A stretch of DNA of 18,502 nt from Chthonomonadales bacterium (GCA_038217285.1 JBBQPO010000109.1:1-18502); one strand, 5' to 3'; shown: positions 2,048-10,549, numbered from the stretch's first letter. The notes: a model not told the origin generated them from the sequence alone. Translations and numbers: made by a program.

Positions 2048-2779
2048 TCAGACCAGGGACCATTGTGAACAGGGGTGTCCCTCGGCTCCGAAGAAGAAGC
2101 CGACCGCGTGAGAGATAGGATCGATCACCAGGGCGATCTGCCAGTCATGGAAGAAGACGCCGCGCTGCGTCTCCAAATCGGTGGAGGAGAGAAACACCCC
2201 CATACCAGGGTGGGAATGGTAGGAACCGAGCAAGGTCCATGTCGTCGGCAGAGACTGCAACTGAGGCGTGAGAGCCTGCCACGTCGCAGCGGTATAGGCA
2301 AAGGTAACGGCAGTGCCCTCGCCATCGTGTGCCGGCAGAGCCTCTTCCACGACCACACAGTAGAGATCGAGATCTGCATCGTAGATGGATTCGCCGATCA
2401 GCAGACCGCCGAGTTCTATCCGGGTGTCACTGCGCAGGTGCCTCTGTAACTTTTCGAAGGCAGCCCGACGCACGAGACAGCAAGAGGAGCCGCGCCGCAG
2501 ATCCGGCATGCGCTCCGGCGACAGCGCGCTCAGAAATTCAGAGGCGCGCGCGCGTTGGGGCCGATAGACGTCCTCCTGATCGACCCACTCGATCTCATCG
2601 AGTTCCGGAACGACAGGCGGAGTTTCCAGGCCAGCCTTGCTCTCCCGTTCCAGTCGCTTCCTCAGCACGGACGCAACAAACGCCTCGTCCTCCTGCCGCG
2701 CCAGCAGATCCGGGTCTGCCGCATTCGGTATCGAGGGCACAGCCCGGTCTTCCGTTTTTCTCTTCCAGAAAGGACGCAT
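2048..2779 (-). CDS. JAB/MPN (JAMM) metallo-isopeptidase, deubiquitinase-like, with N-terminal extension
   Basis: ELGGLLIG ... YHSHPGMGVFLSSTD (E...H-x-H-x7-S-x2-D) ... ALVIDP is a complete JAMM motif. The ATG directly abuts the E2 stop codon. Confidence 0.93.
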   Translation of the reverse strand: MRPFWKRKTEDRAVPSIPNAADPDLLARQEDEAFVASVLRKRLERESKAGLETPPVVPELDEIEWVDQEDVYRPQRARASEFLSALSPERMPDLRRGSSCCLVRRAAFEKLQRHLRSDTRIELGGLLIGESIYDADLDLYCVVVEEALPAHDGEGTAVTFAYTAATWQALTPQLQSLPTTWTLLGSYHSHPGMGVFLSSTDLETQRGVFFHDWQIALVIDPISHAVGFFFGAEGHPCSQWSLV

Positions 2780-3387: not shown

Positions 3388-3651
3388 TCACTCCCCGCCG
3401 TGCGTTGCCAGCGGTTGAATCATCAGGGTGTCGTGGTCGCGCACTCTCTCTTCGGTCAGCATCTCAAAAGGAAGCAACTGCCGGTTCAAAGAGAGGTTCG
3501 TGACGACGTAGTTCGAGCCGAAGAGCATCTTCCAGCGTTTGGTCGAAGCGCGTATCAGGTCCTGCGCGGTCATCGTGCGTGGAAGCACGATCTCCGCTTT
3601 GCGTGTTTTGTCCGCAGTCTGCAAATAGAAAACAACTCGTTCTCCGCTCAT
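3388..3651 (-). CDS. Ubiquitin-like (beta-grasp) modifier protein, 87 aa, C-terminus HGG-E
   Basis: Size and pattern fit Ub/YukD-like folds (beta-beta-helix ... L...EMLTEERVRDHDTLMIQP...GG). It has a di-glycine one residue before the stop and lies between E1 and E2 with 3- and 5-nt gaps. Confidence 0.85.
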   Translation of the reverse strand: MSGERVVFYLQTADKTRKAEIVLPRTMTAQDLIRASTKRWKMLFGSNYVVTNLSLNRQLLPFEMLTEERVRDHDTLMIQPLATHGGE

Positions 3652-3654
3652 GTT

Positions 3655-4818
3655 TCAGCCTTTCCAGCCCTCGCCAAAGAGATCGCCTCCGGACAGTTGG
3701 AGGAAACGCCTGGTCCCCTCCCCTTGAATGCTCACGACGGCGCCGTTCGGAAGCCCCATCCGTGCCAGTGAAACGTCCGCATAGGGTCCTGCGGCGTCCA
3801 GCCAGTTCACGGCCTCCGGTTGGCGACTGCGCGTTTTGCAATCGGGACAGAACGTCCACTCCATACCGCACCGTTCCAACGGCTTCAAAACCGTCTCTAC
3901 CGCGCCACACTCCACGCACCGCATCTGCGTCAGAAGATCGAAGCCCAGTTCGACCGCCCCGCCCGACTCGCCCGCAAGGTCCAGCAAAAGACGGGGCGTT
4001 GCTATCTCTTTTGACTGCTCGATACCCTCGATAGGTTCCCAGGTATCATGGGCCAGGCACTCACTATTTTCCGGCAGGTCGTAAACCCCGAAATGATAGG
4101 GCTTCAGAGTCAGATAGAGCTTCTGAGAGAAGGCCAGCCCCTCTTTTTGCAGTGAGCCGGCGGCATGCAGCAGCAGCAACGCCTCATTGACGAGATACCC
4201 TGCAACGATAGAGGCGACCACGGCGGTCGTCGGCATCTTCTGATCGGCCTCCTCGGCGCGCAGGCCGCCGCAGGCGAATCGCCGGTTGCGCTCCTCCCAC
4301 ATCGCCGCCGACATGGCGCACTCGTAGCAGGCTCCCGATCTGCCGTCAAACAGACTGACCTCCGCAATCGTGGCTTCGATACCGCCGTTCAGCCAGGGAA
4401 CACCCGCCCGTCGGCAAAGGCGATTCAGGGCCAGACGGGCCTGCACACTGTCGAGACAGCCGATGACGACATCCATGTCCCGATAGACGCCAAGACCGAC
4501 ATCGAATTCGAGATCACCGACGAGAGAGCGAACCCGGATGTCAGGATTGATTTCGGCAGCGCGCTCTGCCGCCACCTCTGCCTTCGCCCGCCCGTGGTCT
4601 GCGGCGCGAAACAACACGCTGCGGGTTAAGTTCGATAGCTCGACCGTATCGCTGTCCACAATGACGAGATGTCCGACACCGATGAGCGCCAGATTCTTGA
4701 TGACCTCGTTGCCGATGGCCCCCGCGCCGACCACCATGACACGCGCGTGGTGCAGACGCTCCTGGTCCCACCAGTCGATCAGCCGATGCCGCGTATAACG
4801 ATCCTCTTCGGAATTCAA
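3655..4818 (-). CDS. Ubiquitin-activating E1-like enzyme (ThiF/MoeB/E1 adenylation domain, catalytic Cys, C-terminal Zn-ribbon/ubiquitin-fold-like extension)
   Basis: Motifs DRYTRH, VVGAGAIG, D.DTVELSNLTR, KAE, CLDS..AR, CYEC, downstream FAC (candidate thioester Cys), CLAH, then CVEC...CPDC. Start reassigned to TTG 4818, which overlaps the upstream TGA (TTGA) after a GA-rich RBS; 387 aa. Confidence 0.92.
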   Translation of the reverse strand: MNSEEDRYTRHRLIDWWDQERLHHARVMVVGAGAIGNEVIKNLALIGVGHLVIVDSDTVELSNLTRSVLFRAADHGRAKAEVAAERAAEINPDIRVRSLVGDLEFDVGLGVYRDMDVVIGCLDSVQARLALNRLCRRAGVPWLNGGIEATIAEVSLFDGRSGACYECAMSAAMWEERNRRFACGGLRAEEADQKMPTTAVVASIVAGYLVNEALLLLHAAGSLQKEGLAFSQKLYLTLKPYHFGVYDLPENSECLAHDTWEPIEGIEQSKEIATPRLLLDLAGESGGAVELGFDLLTQMRCVECGAVETVLKPLERCGMEWTFCPDCKTRSRQPEAVNWLDAAGPYADVSLARMGLPNGAVVSIQGEGTRRFLQLSGGDLFGEGWKG

Positions 4819-5159
4819 AGGTGCGTCTCTCTCTCCCGGAAGGGCACCACGGAGCCAGCCTTCCGGCAGTGACAGCAGCGCCCTTTGTCCGTATCCCGAA
4901 GAAAGGCCCAACCTTCGGCGCTATAGGCCGTATTGCAGTTACGGCACAGATAGAGGAAACTGCCTGTTTGCAGCGACTGGCGGGTGACAGGGCAGACCAG
5001 GGCGGTGTCTATGCCGAGCGCGGCAGCCTGGGGCGGACTCAACGAACGAAATTCGACGTTGGGATCGTCCGGCAGTTCGGCAGCATCGCGCGACGATTGC
5101 AGTGTGTTATCACGCAGGAGCCCCATTCTCATCAGCAGTGCTGTCAGTCGTTCCCGCAT
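4815..5159 (-). CDS. Small Cys-rich protein with a degenerate RING-like finger (candidate E3)
   Basis: 114 aa from ATG 5159 (AAGGAGG RBS). Contains CPVT-x12-CRNC-x3-YSAEGW-x10-CCHC. Translationally coupled to E1. Confidence 0.7.
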   Translation of the reverse strand: MRERLTALLMRMGLLRDNTLQSSRDAAELPDDPNVEFRSLSPPQAAALGIDTALVCPVTRQSLQTGSFLYLCRNCNTAYSAEGWAFLRDTDKGRCCHCRKAGSVVPFRERETHL

Positions 5160-5187
5160 CGTCACCACCCTCCTTGCACCCTCTCCC

Positions 5188-5526
5188 CTACAGTGCGTCA
5201 TCTCCTCGCTCCTCGGTACGCACACGGACGGCGTCTTCCATTGGCAGCACGAAGATTTTACCGTCGCCCTGTTCGCCTGTATGCGCATGGCGTTCTATCG
5301 TAGTGACGATCTCATCGATGTCTTCGTCACGCGCCACGATCTCGATCTTGATCTTCATAGGCAGTTCGATCGCGTACTCCACGCCCCGAAAACTCTCCCG
5401 ATGACCACGCTGCCGCCCACTGCCCCGCACATCCGACACCGAGAGCCCCGTCACCCCGATCTCCCCCAGCGCAATCTTGACCTCATCCAACTTGAGCGGC
5501 CGAATAATCGCCTCAATCTTCTTCAT
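5188..5526 (-). CDS. glnB: P-II family nitrogen regulatory protein (GlnB/GlnK)
   Basis: Canonical 112 aa: MKKIEAIIRP, GRQ39, RGVEY51, K58, TGEQGDGKIF, RVRT. glnB versus glnK cannot be resolved; no amtB is adjacent. Confidence 0.95.
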   Translation of the reverse strand: MKKIEAIIRPLKLDEVKIALGEIGVTGLSVSDVRGSGRQRGHRESFRGVEYAIELPMKIKIEIVARDEDIDEIVTTIERHAHTGEQGDGKIFVLPMEDAVRVRTEERGDDAL

Positions 5527-5575
5527 CTCCTAGCCCTTTCCTGCCTTCCTGTTCGTATCCCTTTCTTTTTTCCTG

Positions 5576-6526
5576 TTATTGTTCGCGCAGCACCCGCACG
5601 GCGACATCCATTGCGCGGGCAAAAGGGCCTCGGTAGATCCCGCGTATCGGTGGAACGTCCCCATAATCCCGCCCGAAATGGACCTTCACGTAGTTCTGAT
5701 TGGTCAGCAGATTGTTCGTCGGGTCGAAGCCATGCCATTTGCCGTCCGACAGCAGACATTCGACCCAGGCGTGCATGGCGTCTCCGCCGGTGGGACTGGT
5801 GCGAAGTGAGTAGGACGGCTTCTCGTCCACGCTATCCTCCGGTAGTTCCGTGACAGGATAGTCTTCCGCGCGTTCGCCGGTGTAGAGATAGCCGCTGACG
5901 TAGCGCGCAGGAATGTGCTGGCGACGACAGACGGCGAGCATGAGATGGGCGAAGTCCTGACAGACGCCACTTTTCTGTTCAAGCACCTGCTGAATCGAAG
6001 AGTTGACGTTGGTCGCTCCCGGCGCGTAGGCGATCACATGGTAGAGCAGCCGCGTCAGAGCGATCAGAAAGGAGGCGGAACCGACGTCTGCCTGCTTGTG
6101 CGCCACGACCGCGATGCGCTCCGTCTCCGGATGGAGGAGCACCCGTTCGGTCGGAGCCAGATACTCGCCATAGCGCTCCCGAACTGTCGGCTGCCGATAG
6201 AACGCGCTGTCGTCTTCGGTCAGGTTGAGTCCCGCGAACGGGTCGTGGCGATGCGTGACGACCAGCGACTCGGCCATAATCGCCAGTTCGTGGTGCGCAG
6301 AGCGGACGCCGAAGTGGTGGACGCGACCGGTGGGCAGATCGTACTCGAAAACCGGTGTGGACGGCAGGACCGTCAGGCGGAAGTCGAGGCACGTCTGATC
6401 GCCGTCGCTCAAGGGCATCAGTCGAACTTCGTTGTGACTCTCCGTCGCGGGAGTCGTGTAGCTGTATCGGGTCGTATGGTAGAGGCGCAGGCGCACGGTG
6501 GCAGTTTCCCTGTTCCGGAGAGACAC
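5576..6526 (-). CDS. Transglutaminase-like protein (bacterial transglutaminase N-terminal domain plus catalytic core)
   Basis: N-domain H.TRYSY...NEVRL.P; catalytic triad in GVCQDFAH, HAWVE and FDPTN; also ARYVSGYL and GRDYGDV.P. The start may be GTG 6496. Confidence 0.93.
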   Translation of the reverse strand: MSLRNRETATVRLRLYHTTRYSYTTPATESHNEVRLMPLSDGDQTCLDFRLTVLPSTPVFEYDLPTGRVHHFGVRSAHHELAIMAESLVVTHRHDPFAGLNLTEDDSAFYRQPTVRERYGEYLAPTERVLLHPETERIAVVAHKQADVGSASFLIALTRLLYHVIAYAPGATNVNSSIQQVLEQKSGVCQDFAHLMLAVCRRQHIPARYVSGYLYTGERAEDYPVTELPEDSVDEKPSYSLRTSPTGGDAMHAWVECLLSDGKWHGFDPTNNLLTNQNYVKVHFGRDYGDVPPIRGIYRGPFARAMDVAVRVLREQ

Positions 6527-6532
6527 GATCTC

Positions 6533-7564
6533 TCAGTAGGAGAGATAGGTGCGTGTGATCGCTCGGCCGACATCGTCGCAGCGTCCCTGTACGCTGTCCA
6601 GAAACTGATGCAGCCCGCTGCGGATGATCTCGTCGGAGCGTATATAGGTCAGGTCGGCGCGCAGTCTGCCGAGGAGACGTTCCGGATCGGTCGTCGGTTC
6701 GTCGCGCATATTGCCGCTAATGCGCTTCTGGCAGCCCTCGACGCGCCCGATCCCATGCCGCACCGAAGCCGGGAAGGTGGGGTTGAGCACCAGGAAATCG
6801 ACGATGCTGGCTGGCCGGATCCCGTCGTGGTGCGTTTTACGATACATTTCGAAGGCGCTGACCGATTTCAGCACCGCAATCCAGCCGTGCATATCCAGCG
6901 GCCCGCCGACTCCGTAAGGGTTGGGCTGTCGTTCCGCCGACGGCGCATGGTCGGTTTCTGGAATGTCGGTGACGTAGACCGGCAGCAGGTCGTGGTACTT
7001 CACATCCAGTAGACGCGCTGTCTGAATGGCGCGCTCCAAAAAGCGCCCGGTGTCGAGCCAGTCACGGGGTTCGCTCATCAACATCGTGCGATTGAGGATG
7101 CCCTGAAACAGGTGGGAGGCGTTCTTCACGGCTTGAAAGAACTCGTGTGGAGAGCCGGCCAGCACGCGGTCCACGTTCCACTCCCGCAGCTGCAAGTAAA
7201 AGACGTTCAGGCTCTCCCACATCTCCGAGGCGATCTGCTCTCGAATCGAACGGGCATTTTCCCGGGCTCCGGTCCAGACCCGCAAAATCGAACCCGGATT
7301 CTCCATATCGAAAACGAAAAAATGGATTACGTCCCGGTCGTTCTCCGTGGCATAGCGCGCATGATAGTCTTTCGTGCTGCCGGAGATCGCGAGCAGCGAC
7401 GCCCAGCGCATCGGCGTAAACGCGTCCTCTCGATCGAGATCGGCGGCGGGAAGCGTCGTCTCCAGCGCGGCGTGATAGTGAACATCGACCATGCGGGCGG
7501 TCGCTTCGGCGCGTTCGACGTAGCGGCCGATCCAGTAACAGGAGTCGGCATCTCGACTGAGCAT
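6533..7564 (-). CDS. Alpha-E domain protein (DUF403)
   Basis: MLSR.A...YWIGRYVERAE.TAR, ARENARSIRE.I..EMWE and GRFLERA..TARLLDVKY: the repeated ER motifs of alpha-E proteins. The ATG overlaps the upstream TAA. Confidence 0.93.
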   Translation of the reverse strand: MLSRDADSCYWIGRYVERAEATARMVDVHYHAALETTLPAADLDREDAFTPMRWASLLAISGSTKDYHARYATENDRDVIHFFVFDMENPGSILRVWTGARENARSIREQIASEMWESLNVFYLQLREWNVDRVLAGSPHEFFQAVKNASHLFQGILNRTMLMSEPRDWLDTGRFLERAIQTARLLDVKYHDLLPVYVTDIPETDHAPSAERQPNPYGVGGPLDMHGWIAVLKSVSAFEMYRKTHHDGIRPASIVDFLVLNPTFPASVRHGIGRVEGCQKRISGNMRDEPTTDPERLLGRLRADLTYIRSDEIIRSGLHQFLDSVQGRCDDVGRAITRTYLSY

Positions 7565-9144
7565 TACGAGCCTCCTTCCGGTTCGGTCGTCGGAGCCGGT
7601 TTGCCGAAGCTCTGCGTCATGCCGCCCAGCGACTGCGCCATTCCCGTTCCGGTCATCATCTGACTCATGCCATTCCTCTGCTGGCTAAGGCTCGCATTGT
7701 CGTGCGCGAGCACCCAGGTGTCTTTGCTGCCGCCCCCCTGCGAGGAGTTGACGACATAAGAGCCTTTGCGCAACGCGACCCGTGTCAGGGCGCCGGGAAT
7801 GATGGTGATCTCCTTCTGTCCATACAGAATATAGGGTCGCAGATCGATATGTCGCCCCTCCATGTTGGTTTCGTCGATAAAAGAGGGCGCTTGCGACAGG
7901 GAGATGAGCGGTTGGGCAATGTAGTTGCGCGGATTCGCCTTTATCTTCTCGGCGAACTCGGCGCGTTCGGCCTGGCTCGCCTGCGGCCCCATCAGCATCC
8001 CGTAGCCGCCCGACTCGTTGGCGGCTTTGACCACCAGTTTGTCGAGGTTGGCCAGAATATACTGCCTCTGCGTCGGCTCCGAGGCGAGAAAAGTTTCGAC
8101 ATTATCGAGGATCGGCTTCTCGCCCAGATAGTACTCGATGATGCGCGGCACGTAGGCGTAGACGACCTTGTCGTCCGCAACGCCCGTGCCGATGGAGTTC
8201 GCGAGGGCGACGTTGCCACTGCGGTAGGCATTGACCAGTCCCGCCGCGCCGAGCGCCGAGTCGCCGCGGAACACCAGGGGGTCGAGAAAGTCGTCGTCCA
8301 CCCGGCGATAGATCACATCGACCCGTTCCGGTCCTTTCGTGGTCTTCATGTAGACGATATTGTTGTCTACAAACAGGTCGCGCCCCTGCACCAGTTCGAT
8401 GCCGAGCTGTTGGGCGAGAAAGGCGTGTTCGAAATAGGCGCTATTGTAGACGCCGGGGGTGAGCAGCACCACATTGGGAGAGTCCCGGCGGCCCTCCGGG
8501 GCGAGCTCGCGCAGATTGTTCAACAGTTGCGTCGTATAGTGATCGACGGGTCGCACGGGCAGGTCACGGAACATCTGCGGCAGCACGCGCGTCAGGATGA
8601 TCCGGTTTTCCAGCACATAGGAGACTCCGGACGGCGTACGCAGGTTGTCTTCGAGGACTTTGTACGTTCCGTGCTGGTCACGGATCAGGTCGCTGCCGCA
8701 GATATGCACATAGATACCGCCGGGCGGATCGGCGCCCAGGAACTCGCGCCGGAAGTAGGCGGCGTTCACAATGAGGTCACGCGGAATGACACGGTCCGCC
8801 AGGATCTTCTGGTCGTGGTAGACATCGTGAATGAACAGGTTCAGGGCGGTCAGACGCTGCTTGAGGCCGCGCTCGATCAGTTCCCATTCGTCGGCCGGAA
8901 TGATCCTCGGAATCAGGTCGAAGGGGAAGGGCTTTTCCACCCCCTGCTCGCCGCCATAGACCGCGAACGTGATGCCCTGATTAATGAGAGTCAGCTCGGC
9001 CAACTGGCATCGACGGCGGAAGTCTTCGAGAGACAGGCCGGTGAGACGCTGGAACAGTTTCCAGTAGTGGGGGCGTGGTTGGCCGTCCGGCTGAAACATT
9101 TCATCGTAGAAGCCATTGGTCTGATAGTTGTCGAATAGTGGCAT
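7564..9144 (-). CDS. Circularly permuted type 2 ATP-grasp peptide ligase (DUF404/DUF407 type)
   Basis: YDEM, GITF.VY, PFDLIPR, LEDNLRTPSGVSY, NSAYFEH, RVDVIYRR, GVADDK, SGGYGM, DLRP, VVNSSQGGGSKDTWV. Start reassigned to ATG 9144 behind AGGAGG; 526 aa. Confidence 0.95.
   Translation of the reverse strand: MPLFDNYQTNGFYDEMFQPDGQPRPHYWKLFQRLTGLSLEDFRRRCQLAELTLINQGITFAVYGGEQGVEKPFPFDLIPRIIPADEWELIERGLKQRLTALNLFIHDVYHDQKILADRVIPRDLIVNAAYFRREFLGADPPGGIYVHICGSDLIRDQHGTYKVLEDNLRTPSGVSYVLENRIILTRVLPQMFRDLPVRPVDHYTTQLLNNLRELAPEGRRDSPNVVLLTPGVYNSAYFEHAFLAQQLGIELVQGRDLFVDNNIVYMKTTKGPERVDVIYRRVDDDFLDPLVFRGDSALGAAGLVNAYRSGNVALANSIGTGVADDKVVYAYVPRIIEYYLGEKPILDNVETFLASEPTQRQYILANLDKLVVKAANESGGYGMLMGPQASQAERAEFAEKIKANPRNYIAQPLISLSQAPSFIDETNMEGRHIDLRPYILYGQKEITIIPGALTRVALRKGSYVVNSSQGGGSKDTWVLAHDNASLSQQRNGMSQMMTGTGMAQSLGGMTQSFGKPAPTTEPEGGS
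7612..7671 (-). repeat. Three G-M-x-Q coding repeats in the ATP-grasp C-terminal tail
   Basis: GGC ATG AGT CAG, GGA ATG GCG CAG and GGC ATG ACG CAG within ...NGMSQMMTGTGMAQSLGGMTQSFG... Confidence 0.7.
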
Positions 9145-9326
9145 CGAAAGAGACGCACCTCCTGCGGGTTTCGACTCCGCCTTGGAGCCGTGCAGACTTT
9201 TCACCGAGGGGCACCATCGCCTGGACCGGGCGCGAAGGCCGGTAAACCGCTTCGCAAAAGGGGAAAAACAACGATGCACCGACAGCGACTGCAAAATGCA
9301 GCAGGGATTACCGCTATCGTTCGCCT

Positions 9327-9356
9327 ATTATAACCCGTCTCGCACTATAAAGTAAA
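9327..9356 (-). promoter_or_regulatory. Putative sigma70 promoter for the long minus-strand operon
   Basis: Minus strand reads TTTACT-N18-TATAAT in the AT-rich divergent intergenic region, about 180 nt upstream of the ATP-grasp start. Confidence 0.5.
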
Positions 9357-9469
9357 GATGCCGTCAATGTAAAATAGACTCGACAGAGCATCGCAATCTC
9401 CCCTCGCTTTCCTGTAAAGCCGAGACGGGAGAGAATAGAAACGCCGACCATAGGTCGCAGGAGAGCCGA

Positions 9470-10549
9470 ATGAGTGAGCTGAATTTCGATTTGTTGAAAC
9501 GAATCTGCGAGACACCTGGCATTCCAAGCCGGGAAGAGGCCATCCGCAAGCTGGTCATTGCGGAGCTGAGACCGCTGTGCGACACGCTGGAGGTCGATGT
9601 GATGGGCAACGTGATCGCGTTCAAGAAGGGCGCGAGTGATGGCCCGCGCGTCATGATCGCGGCACACCTCGACGAGATCGGTTTCATGGTGAAGCATATC
9701 GACGATCGGGGATTTATACGGCTTCTGCCGGTCGGCGGCTGGGACCCACGCGCCATGGTGGCGCAGCGTGTGCTGGTACACGGCTTCGCGGGCCAGACGC
9801 TCCGCGGCACCCTGATGCCGGGGATCAAACCGACCCATCTTTTGACGACGGAGGAGGCGAACAAATCCCCGAAGATCGAGGAGTTTTTCGTCGATCTCGG
9901 ACTCTCCGGCGAAAAGGTCAAGTCGCTCGTCGAGTTGGGCGACATGGTCACGATGGACCGAACGGCGGAGCGGATAGGCGATATGGTCGTGAGCAAGACC
10001 CTCGATGACCGCCTTAGCGTCTTCATTCTGATCGAAACGCTCCGCAAACTCCAGAATACGCCGACGAAAGCCCATATCCTCGCCGTGGCCACTACGCAGG
10101 AAGAGGTCGGCCTGCGCGGCGCGACGACGGCAGCCTACGCCCTACAGCCCGACATCGGCATTGCGCTCGATGTGACGCTGGCGGTCGATCTCCCCGGCGT
10201 TCCCGAGCAGGATCAGGTGACGCGGCTTGGAAACGGCACGGCGATCAAGATCGTCGACTCCTCCCTGCTCTGTCATCCCAAACTCGTCCGCCACTTCCGG
10301 GACGTCGCCGAGGCGAAGGGCATCAAATATCAGTTGGAGATTCTTCCACGGGGCGGCACCGACGCGGGCGGAATCCAGCGCAGCCGCGGCGGCGTTCCCT
10401 CCTTCACGCTCTCCATTCCGACGCGTTACATCCACACCGTCAACGAGATGGCCCATGTCGACGACATCCAGGCCTCCATCGATCTGCTGGCCGCCTACCT
10501 GCCCGAAGCCCACACCCGCCCCTACGGCTACGCCGAAGAGGTCGAGTAG
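9470..10549 (+). CDS. M42 family metallo-aminopeptidase (TET/FrvX-like)
   Basis: Metal and catalytic motifs AAHLDEIG, KTLDDR, QEEVGLRGA, IALDVT, GGTDAG, PTRYIHT; AGGAG RBS. Confidence 0.95.
   Translation: MSELNFDLLKRICETPGIPSREEAIRKLVIAELRPLCDTLEVDVMGNVIAFKKGASDGPRVMIAAHLDEIGFMVKHIDDRGFIRLLPVGGWDPRAMVAQRVLVHGFAGQTLRGTLMPGIKPTHLLTTEEANKSPKIEEFFVDLGLSGEKVKSLVELGDMVTMDRTAERIGDMVVSKTLDDRLSVFILIETLRKLQNTPTKAHILAVATTQEEVGLRGATTAAYALQPDIGIALDVTLAVDLPGVPEQDQVTRLGNGTAIKIVDSSLLCHPKLVRHFRDVAEAKGIKYQLEILPRGGTDAGGIQRSRGGVPSFTLSIPTRYIHTVNEMAHVDDIQASIDLLAAYLPEAHTRPYGYAEEVE

Follow-up and report, generated by a model that had tools for sequence, protein, structure and literature searches.

The window analysed here is an 18,502-nucleotide (nt) stretch of DNA from a Chthonomonadales bacterium (GCA_038217285.1 JBBQPO010000109.1:1-18502), a soil-type bacterium of the family Chthonomonadaceae. 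It contains nine co-directional genes that run along the minus strand from 9144 down to 2048 and are best read, with modest confidence and on sequence evidence, as a conserved and probably co-transcribed super-operon joining two modules. Module 1 is the known amidoligase triad (ATP-grasp, alpha-E and transglutaminase genes) and module 2 a complete, eukaryote- or Caldiarchaeum-like ubiquitination cassette, with a gene for a P-II signal protein between them. From 5' to 3' on the minus strand the order is ATP-grasp, alpha-E, transglutaminase, P-II, RING-like protein, E1, ubiquitin-like protein (Ubl), E2 and JAB peptidase. Because the identical order recurs in four other species-level genomes, the nine-gene arrangement is more than chance.

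The first-pass annotation of this DNA had set out the first five of these genes, and gene calls and Pfam matches confirm exactly their minus-strand orientation, their coordinates and the gaps that separate them: -1 nt (a TGATG overlap), 6, 49 and 28 nt. It had also called the 28-nt spacer between the P-II and RING-like genes a purine-rich ribosome-binding sequence without a hairpin; the ribosome-binding motif is present, and a terminator scan of this spacer found no terminator-like hairpin. The cassette runs past the start coordinate given at that stage, with the E1, Ubl, E2 and JAB genes continuing down to 2048, and is packed equally tightly: the TTG start of the E1 gene overlaps the stop of the RING-like gene as TTGA, and the following junctions measure 3 nt (E1-Ubl), -4 nt (Ubl-E2) and 0 nt (E2-JAB). 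GC content is about 0.60 throughout both modules. The nine genes belong to a longer minus-strand run of twelve consecutive genes that extends from 9144 to the left edge of the window.

Relatives of the cassette were collected through its E2, for which 83 homologues with Chthonomonadaceae names were found at E ≤ 1e-3; species-representative genomes were then scanned with the E2 alignment, and 77 pattern matches led to 32 confirmed loci, all of them in metagenome-assembled genomes. All twelve window proteins were compared with these loci by tblastn (E ≤ 1e-4). The nine-gene order of the window is reproduced in 4/32 loci (L001, L002, L015 and L018, hereafter the linked loci), all from species-level genomes of Chthonomonadaceae; they are half of the eight Armatimonadota loci that have both a complete cassette and upstream sequence. 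Five further loci (L003, L006, L007, L008 and L021) start inside the E1 gene, which makes linkage undecidable there, and two (L024 and L032) have less than 600 nt of upstream sequence. Identity of the ATP-grasp protein is 77-94% in the linked loci. The gap between the P-II and RING-like genes is 28 nt in the window, 29 nt in L001, 29 (or -1) nt in L002, 37 nt in L015 and 42 nt in L018, and that between the transglutaminase and P-II genes is 49, 121, 81, 3 and 76 nt, respectively. The flanks vary between genomes. Upstream lies a divergent M42 peptidase gene in the window, L001 and L002, an Obg gene in L018 and other genes in L015; downstream are RyR and TIR-like genes in the window, a DAGK gene in L001, an RHS fragment in L002, a SUKH gene followed by PHP and APS kinase genes in L015, and PHP and APS kinase genes in L018. 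This variation indicates that the block itself is the conserved unit.

The history of the junction was examined with a tree of concatenated E1, E2 and JAB sequences (14 rows) that had cyanobacterial and Chloroflexota loci as its root and omitted loci with cut cassettes; it was used in place of a single-gene E1 tree (with L002 and L022 added by coordinates) that gave no resolution. The linked group had been set from synteny before any tree was built. In the concatenated tree the unlinked locus L004 is sister of the window, L001 and L002 (support 95/93), while linked L015, linked L018 and the unlinked L013/L014/L017 are on separate basal branches; the linked loci occupy three separate basal branches. 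A single linked clade is rejected by the approximately unbiased test (p 0.0007). A single ancestral junction that was later broken on two or more occasions is far more probable than three separate gains of the same gene order. The P-II/cassette junction therefore looks ancestral, with losses in L004 and in L013/L014/L017. Judged from these comparisons, the linkage is old and long kept, yet dispensable, and it is confined to one bacterial family. The attachment of the cassette to the triad through P-II, which the first-pass annotation had read from a single genome, is thus found again in relatives, within the limits of that family and of its losses.

The same history could be told without any tie between the cassette and nitrogen or the triad. 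An ancestral cassette may have landed behind a glnB-like gene and been read through from the upstream promoter, vertical descent alone keeping the order. This neutral hitch-hiking is a possible explanation, though of clearly lower probability than the super-operon reading: it suits a junction found in one family only and lost at least twice, the presence of the cassette among unrelated housekeeping genes in other phyla, the separate occurrence elsewhere of triad and cassette, and protein identities that drop in parallel along the block from L001 to L018, as vertical descent predicts. It sits less easily with a block that stayed intact while both flanks changed several times, with a P-II/RING spacing that kept to 28-42 nt while E1 identity to the window dropped as low as 45%, and with the presence of linked loci across the deepest splits in the cassette tree of the family.

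Under the super-operon reading, all nine genes would be read from a promoter upstream of the ATP-grasp gene. One coding-strand sigma-70-like site, and no other, is shared by the five linked genomes (the window and the four linked loci); it lies 154-182 nt before the ATP-grasp ATG and scores 10-12/12 in a consensus scan, reaching 12/12 in L015. The scan found no promoter-like site in the transglutaminase/P-II and P-II/RING spacers of these five genomes, and at only 28-42 nt the P-II/RING gap leaves no room for a promoter. Among the unlinked cassettes, L013 and L014 have an 11/12 site 83-105 nt before their own RING gene, and L017 and L004 have none; an own promoter site in two of four unlinked cassettes fits a dependence on read-through where the cassette is linked. 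Co-transcription of the nine genes appears likely from these signals, and if all nine are on the ATP-grasp promoter, expression of the cassette in this lineage would depend on the upstream operon. Two kinds of signal were discarded. A promoter-like match at the alpha-E/transglutaminase junction of L001 and L015 falls within conserved coding sequence and has no counterpart in the scan of the window, and terminator-like matches near the 3' part of the JAB gene (2195-2218 in the window; also in L001, L004, L015 and L018) are coding sequence of the HPGMGVFLS motif. Conservation of the leader of about 180 nt behind the shared site extends to L001 and L002 and, in part, to L015. RNAalifold predicts 31 pairs in this leader, one of them covarying, with a minimum free energy z-score of -1.87; a riboswitch or structured leader was dropped as a claim because of too little covariation and the lack of an Rfam match.

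The three genes of module 1 are adjacent and co-directional, and their products have strong Pfam matches. The same three domains in the same order form the 'Anbu operon' (ATP-grasp/Alpha-E/transglutaminase; Iyer 2009, as cited in passages of PMC5666114). Here P-II follows instead of Anbu: no proteasome-type (Anbu) family member was found in the 23 open reading frames of the window, as the first-pass annotation had noted, or in the scanned flanks of L001, L002, L015 and L018. The nitrogen background on which that annotation drew is in print. The triad often includes Anbu, which is up in nitrogen-limited Pseudomonas putida (passages of PMC5666114), and the DUF404/407, DUF403 and transglutaminase cluster of Burkholderia cenocepacia is NtrC/sigma-54-dependent, with a 6- to 9.4-fold drop in an ntrC mutant (passages of PMC5491218). 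In marine metagenomes, the triad domains occur in step with domains of urea metabolism (PMC3597751). An M42 (TET-type) aminopeptidase gene lies divergent from the ATP-grasp promoter region in three of the five linked genomes (window 9470-10549, plus strand; L001 2765-3844; L002 2885-3964). The M42 enzyme may stand in for Anbu as the peptidase partner.

The P-II protein matches PF00543 with 106 bits against a gathering cut-off of 25, and stays below equivalog level (124 versus 202 bits for NF008111, GlnB; 116 versus 181 bits for NF007946). P-II proteins report 2-oxoglutarate and ATP/ADP status. In an alignment of the five linked copies, those of the window, L001, L002 and L015 have GRQRGH, Y51 (in an F-x-x-x-Y context), K58, GDGK and RVR, which we take to be T-loop and effector-site residues, and the T-loop of the window protein looks canonical. 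As P-II reports metabolites and the triad is induced by nitrogen limitation in Pseudomonas and Burkholderia, co-expression of both modules with nitrogen/energy status would be the most likely logic of the arrangement. From this context, nitrogen control and a functional coupling of the two modules are an attractive inference; that their co-expression serves protein turnover is speculation.

Several results weigh against this account. All 21 other loci with at least 1.1 kb of upstream sequence lack P-II, ATP-grasp, alpha-E and a transglutaminase of the triad type, and beyond the Chthonomonadaceae nitrogen genes are lacking around the cassette. Since two or more breaks of the junction occurred in the family itself, the cassette works, or at least persists, when unlinked. 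Matching to a consensus is a crude way of scanning for promoters, some may lie within coding sequence, and one could go unrecognised in the 76-121-nt spacers that precede P-II in L001, L002 and L018. The first-pass annotation had put both gene sets on one transcript under nitrogen control; the shared transcript is favoured by tight junctions in five genomes and by one shared promoter-like site, whereas for nitrogen control there is neither a sigma-54-type site in 9144-9470 (a motif scan gave 12 matches against 7.5 expected, with none in the promoter region) nor a known RNA element (no Rfam match in the window, the four linked loci or, at E ≤ 1, the leader). The P-II of L018 (7339-7671) has a shortened, degenerate T-loop without GRQxGH and the loop tyrosine, and a leucine at the lysine of GDGK. 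Finally, from 114 plasmid records with an alpha-E match, four regions with plasmid-borne triads were inspected, and none has P-II within 5 kb; their neighbours are amidases and C-N hydrolases. As 4/4 of these triads are without P-II, P-II is not a general member of the triad.

The lack of P-II in the four triads inspected elsewhere would also be expected if P-II were the first gene of the Ubl operon, with a promoter in or before the transglutaminase/P-II spacer driving P-II through JAB and P-II directly gating E3 or E1. P-II genes are commonly co-transcribed with their targets, as in glnK-amtB, and the P-II/RING gap is constant and short beside a transglutaminase/P-II gap of 3-121 nt. However, that spacer has a promoter-like site in 0/5 genomes and is only 3 nt long in L015, the unlinked cassettes are without P-II (0/21), and no fusion of a RING-like protein to P-II was found among 22 scanned RING-family relatives. 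We consider this arrangement very unlikely, and continue with the nine-gene super-operon, whose features are given in Table 1.

Table 1. Features of the nine-gene block and its leader in the window (aa, amino acids; E, E-value)
Feature	Position	Strand	Evidence or remark
Two overlapping sigma-70-like promoter matches, TTTACA-18-TATAGT and TTTACT-18-TATAAT	9327-9373	-	10/12 each, consensus scan
Leader, about 182 nt, between promoter-like site and ATP-grasp start	9145-9326	-	Alignment with relatives
Circularly permuted ATP-grasp amidoligase, 526 aa	7564-9144	-	PF14403, E 3.8e-166
Alpha-E domain protein, 343 aa	6533-7564	-	PF04168, E 3.6e-92; start overlaps ATP-grasp stop by 1 nt
Bacterial transglutaminase-like protein, 316 aa	5576-6526	-	PF01841, E 7.5e-20; PF08379, E 4.7e-17
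P-II signal protein, 112 aa	5188-5526	-	PF00543, E 1.5e-30
Spacer, 28 nt, purine-rich	5160-5187	-	AAGGAGG 11 nt before ATG; no hairpin
RING/U-box-like putative E3, 114 aa, short form, Cys-rich	4815-5159	-	No Pfam match; fold-level likeness
E1-like adenylating enzyme, 387 aa, single ThiF-type domain	3655-4818	-	PF00899, E 1.1e-52
Ubiquitin-like protein, 87 aa, end ...THG-GE	3388-3651	-	No Pfam match; AlphaFold2 model and fold matches
E2 conjugating enzyme (UQ_con), 203 aa	2780-3391	-	PF00179, 32.3 bits against cut-off 27
JAB/Rpn11-like metallopeptidase, 243 aa, HSHPGMG...S.TD motif	2048-2779	-	PF14464, E 2e-8; also PF01398

Four of the five cassette proteins have recognisable eukaryotic or archaeal counterparts. 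The best PDB matches of the E1 are to the active adenylation domain of UBA7/UBA1 (E 8.5e-34, versus 1.5e-21 for MoeB/ThiF); its GxGxxG nucleotide loop, C164xxC167 and C183 are invariant in 23/23 aligned rows, and two CxxC pairs are kept. The E2 has HPH followed by C103, invariant in 44/44 rows, and a near-invariant H95, and its profile finds UBE2A/B/N in the PDB (E 8e-9). The JAB protein matches yeast Rpn11 (E 3.7e-10) and the Caldiarchaeum Rpn11-like 6fjv (E 4e-10). The Ubl is modelled by AlphaFold2 as a beta-grasp fold (predicted local distance difference test score, pLDDT, 78), and the model finds 231 fold matches in the PDB at E ≤ 0.001, among them SUMO, ubiquitin, ISG15 and Caldiarchaeum Ub (6fno_D, template modelling score, TM, 0.77). 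Its relatives conserve the ...HG end, with G85 invariant, followed by 0-14 extra residues, two of them (G-E) in the window copy; processing by JAB is therefore likely. In the predicted cascade, JAB would trim the pro-Ubl to its ...HG end, E1 would adenylate the Ubl and take it on Cys183, E2 would take it on Cys103, the RING-like protein would help its transfer to target lysines, and JAB would also reverse the tag.

The fifth protein is the putative E3. No Pfam match was found for it at E ≤ 0.01, and its profile gave no significant match to PDB sequences, the best being a PHD finger (E 0.074). The likeness that the first-pass annotation saw appears to hold at the level of the fold: for an AlphaFold2 model with pLDDT 83-97 at residues 51-110, Foldseek finds 0 matches at E ≤ 0.001, and every one of the top matches listed is to a RING, U-box or SP-RING domain (E 3.7e-3 at best, with a TM by target of 0.4-0.72). 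The invariant residues are C72, W84, F86, L87, G93, C95, C96 and C98. As only four of the six Cys of the domain (C72, C95, C96 and C98) are invariant, short of the eight ligands of a cross-brace, the protein is not a canonical eight-ligand RING, and its domain seems closer to the U-box or SP-RING types than to the cross-brace RING. 'RING-like' is a fair label, and E3 activity is a prediction.

Prokaryotic RING finger operons, with a RING-type gene beside E1, E2, Ubl and JAB genes in bacteria, were reportedly described by Burroughs, Iyer and Aravind in 2011 (Mol Biosyst), and are said to be represented in Pfam by Prok-RING_1 (PF14446). The window shares the RING-type gene beside E1, E2, Ubl and JAB genes, while its RING-like protein has no match to PF14446 at E ≤ 0.01. 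Two of the 22 scanned RING-family relatives (P0154 and P0156) reach 26 bits against the PF14446 cut-off of 29.1, and the nearest named Atlas clusters of the window protein carry Prok-RING_1 with a score of 0.86, which is below 0.9 and a lead only. The RING-like protein occurs in a short form of 108-119 residues (window, L001, L002 and L004) and in a long form of 223-257 residues (L013 7546-8301, L014 7360-8112, L015 7777-8448, L017 7522-8295 and L018 7714-8403), whose N-terminal module has a CxC...CxH pattern that looks SWIM-like by eye. A search for longer fused forms found none, a weak negative since it also missed the known 223-257-residue forms. In Chloroflexota, the RING-like gene stands behind JAB and encodes a fusion with a C-terminal OB-fold domain (L020 11235-14137, L023 11158-14074 and L025 5477-8302), and a ClpB/ClpC-like double AAA+ gene comes directly after it in 3/3 loci with sequence there.

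The closest characterised system is the Caldiarchaeum subterraneum ubiquitin operon (Ub, E1-like, E2-like, small RING finger protein and Rpn11), which has been reconstituted (passages of PMC5654768; for its Rpn11, PMC6043591). Common to both are the five functions in a compact cluster and a pro-Ubl with residues past the C-terminal Gly, for removal by JAB/Rpn11; by analogy, the cassette may work like the reconstituted E1/E2/RING/Rpn11 system. The cassette here differs in being bacterial, in its RING-E1-Ubl-E2-JAB order on one strand behind P-II and the amidoligase triad, in an E3 without the full eight-ligand cross-brace (six Cys, four invariant), and in a Ubl that ends in ...HG rather than a strict GG.

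Among bacteria, the antiphage or uncharacterised ubiquitination-like operons Bil (BilABCD) and Bub (6E/DUF6527) also encode Ubl, E1, E2 and JAB peptidase together. Bil is described as having no E3 and a tandem-domain E1 (passages of PMC11601596), and Bub as having fused proteins (Ubl-E2 or E2-E1) and DUF6527 (passages of PMC11601603 and PMC11601596). The single-ThiF, 387-residue E1 and the RING-like gene rule out membership of Bil, and the lack of a DUF6527 match together with the separate genes rules out Bub. The cassette falls among the bacterial RING-type operons that passages of PMC10557695 describe as 'rare'. According to the same passages, bacterial ubiquitination-like systems of shown function are all phage defence, and RING-containing operons are uncharacterised; passages of Grau-Bove et al. 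(PMC4327156) report no complete ubiquitin toolkit in the bacteria sampled. A search of the available literature found neither the combination of P-II, amidoligase and Ubl cassette nor a Chthonomonas ubiquitin. The parts are known, and their conserved combination appears to be undescribed in the literature searched, though an earlier mention is possible.

Given this company, the cassette could be an antiphage system of the Bil kind to which its neighbours are irrelevant. Uncharacterised Ubl/E1/E2/RING/deubiquitinase operons of bacteria have been predicted to be antiviral (passages of PMC10557695), the E1 and JAB proteins give partial matches to the Cap2/Cap3-type models of PADLOC (E 1.2e-21 and 8.2e-8), and RyR and TIR-like proteins follow JAB, although in the window only. 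The E2, Ubl and RING-like proteins, however, match no PADLOC model; the E1 architecture and the E3-like gene depart from Bil as described above; and the cassette lies on the chromosome, at fixed sites surrounded by housekeeping genes, and is passed on vertically. The Clp-like AAA+ neighbour in Chloroflexota points instead to proteostasis. An antiphage function is unlikely as an explanation of the cassette. The first-pass annotation had suggested a metabolic or proteostasis role rather than, or on top of, phage defence. A role other than phage defence is plausible from context, and the conserved arrangement is a hint, short of proof, at a function in housekeeping that is not solely antiviral.

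In its strongest form, the super-operon reading would make the full E1-E2-E3 Ubl cascade of Chthonomonadaceae part of a nitrogen/energy stress response. The cascade would be co-transcribed with and gated by P-II and, alongside the triad, would tag proteins for turnover or remodelling when nitrogen is limiting. We regard this extended proposal as unlikely. If true, bacteria would have an equivalent of the ubiquitin signalling that starvation drives, and bacterial ubiquitination would have its first role outside defence, with the Clp-like AAA+ protein of Chloroflexota as the corresponding unfoldase. Apart from that proposal, the window presents a complete chromosomal and vertically inherited cassette, apparently fused ancestrally behind a metabolic sensor gene and a nitrogen-linked operon, with a Clp-like unfoldase neighbour in another phylum. 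It offers a testable lead for a housekeeping or proteostasis role that bears on the pre-eukaryotic use of ubiquitin signalling, and it ties the poorly understood ATP-grasp/alpha-E/transglutaminase triad to P-II in a new phylum.

Four loci of the survey have partial cassettes. A Ubl-E2 pair stands alone behind SBP and ApbE genes in L010 (9672-10480) and L012 (9731-10480). L011 (E2-JAB, with no tblastn match for Ubl) and L016 (Ubl-E2-JAB) are without E1 and RING matches and precede a DAHP synthase gene; genes for an ECF sigma factor and an anti-sigma factor lie upstream in L011. In two Chthonomonadales loci outside the linked group, L004 (5195-8196) and L008 (2842-5885), an alanine racemase gene and a gene for a different transglutaminase-domain protein of 547-562 residues lie co-directionally behind JAB.

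Immediately downstream of the block there is a SUKH/SMI1_KNR4 immunity-type gene in L015 (11336-11818) and an RHS-repeat fragment in L002 (12000-12278), and the downstream edge of the block seems to collect conflict-type genes. In the window, JAB is followed, all co-directionally on the minus strand, by a gene for a RyR-domain protein (1618-1992), a gene for a 355-residue protein (487-1554) with a TIR-like C-terminus (PADLOC E 1.8e-13) and a weak Nuc_deoxyrib_tr match, and the open N-terminus of a third gene, 103 residues long (2-310). This stretch has a GC content of 0.53-0.57, compared with about 0.60 in the block, and has tblastn matches in 0/32 loci. It looks like a window-specific insertion of conflict-type genes.

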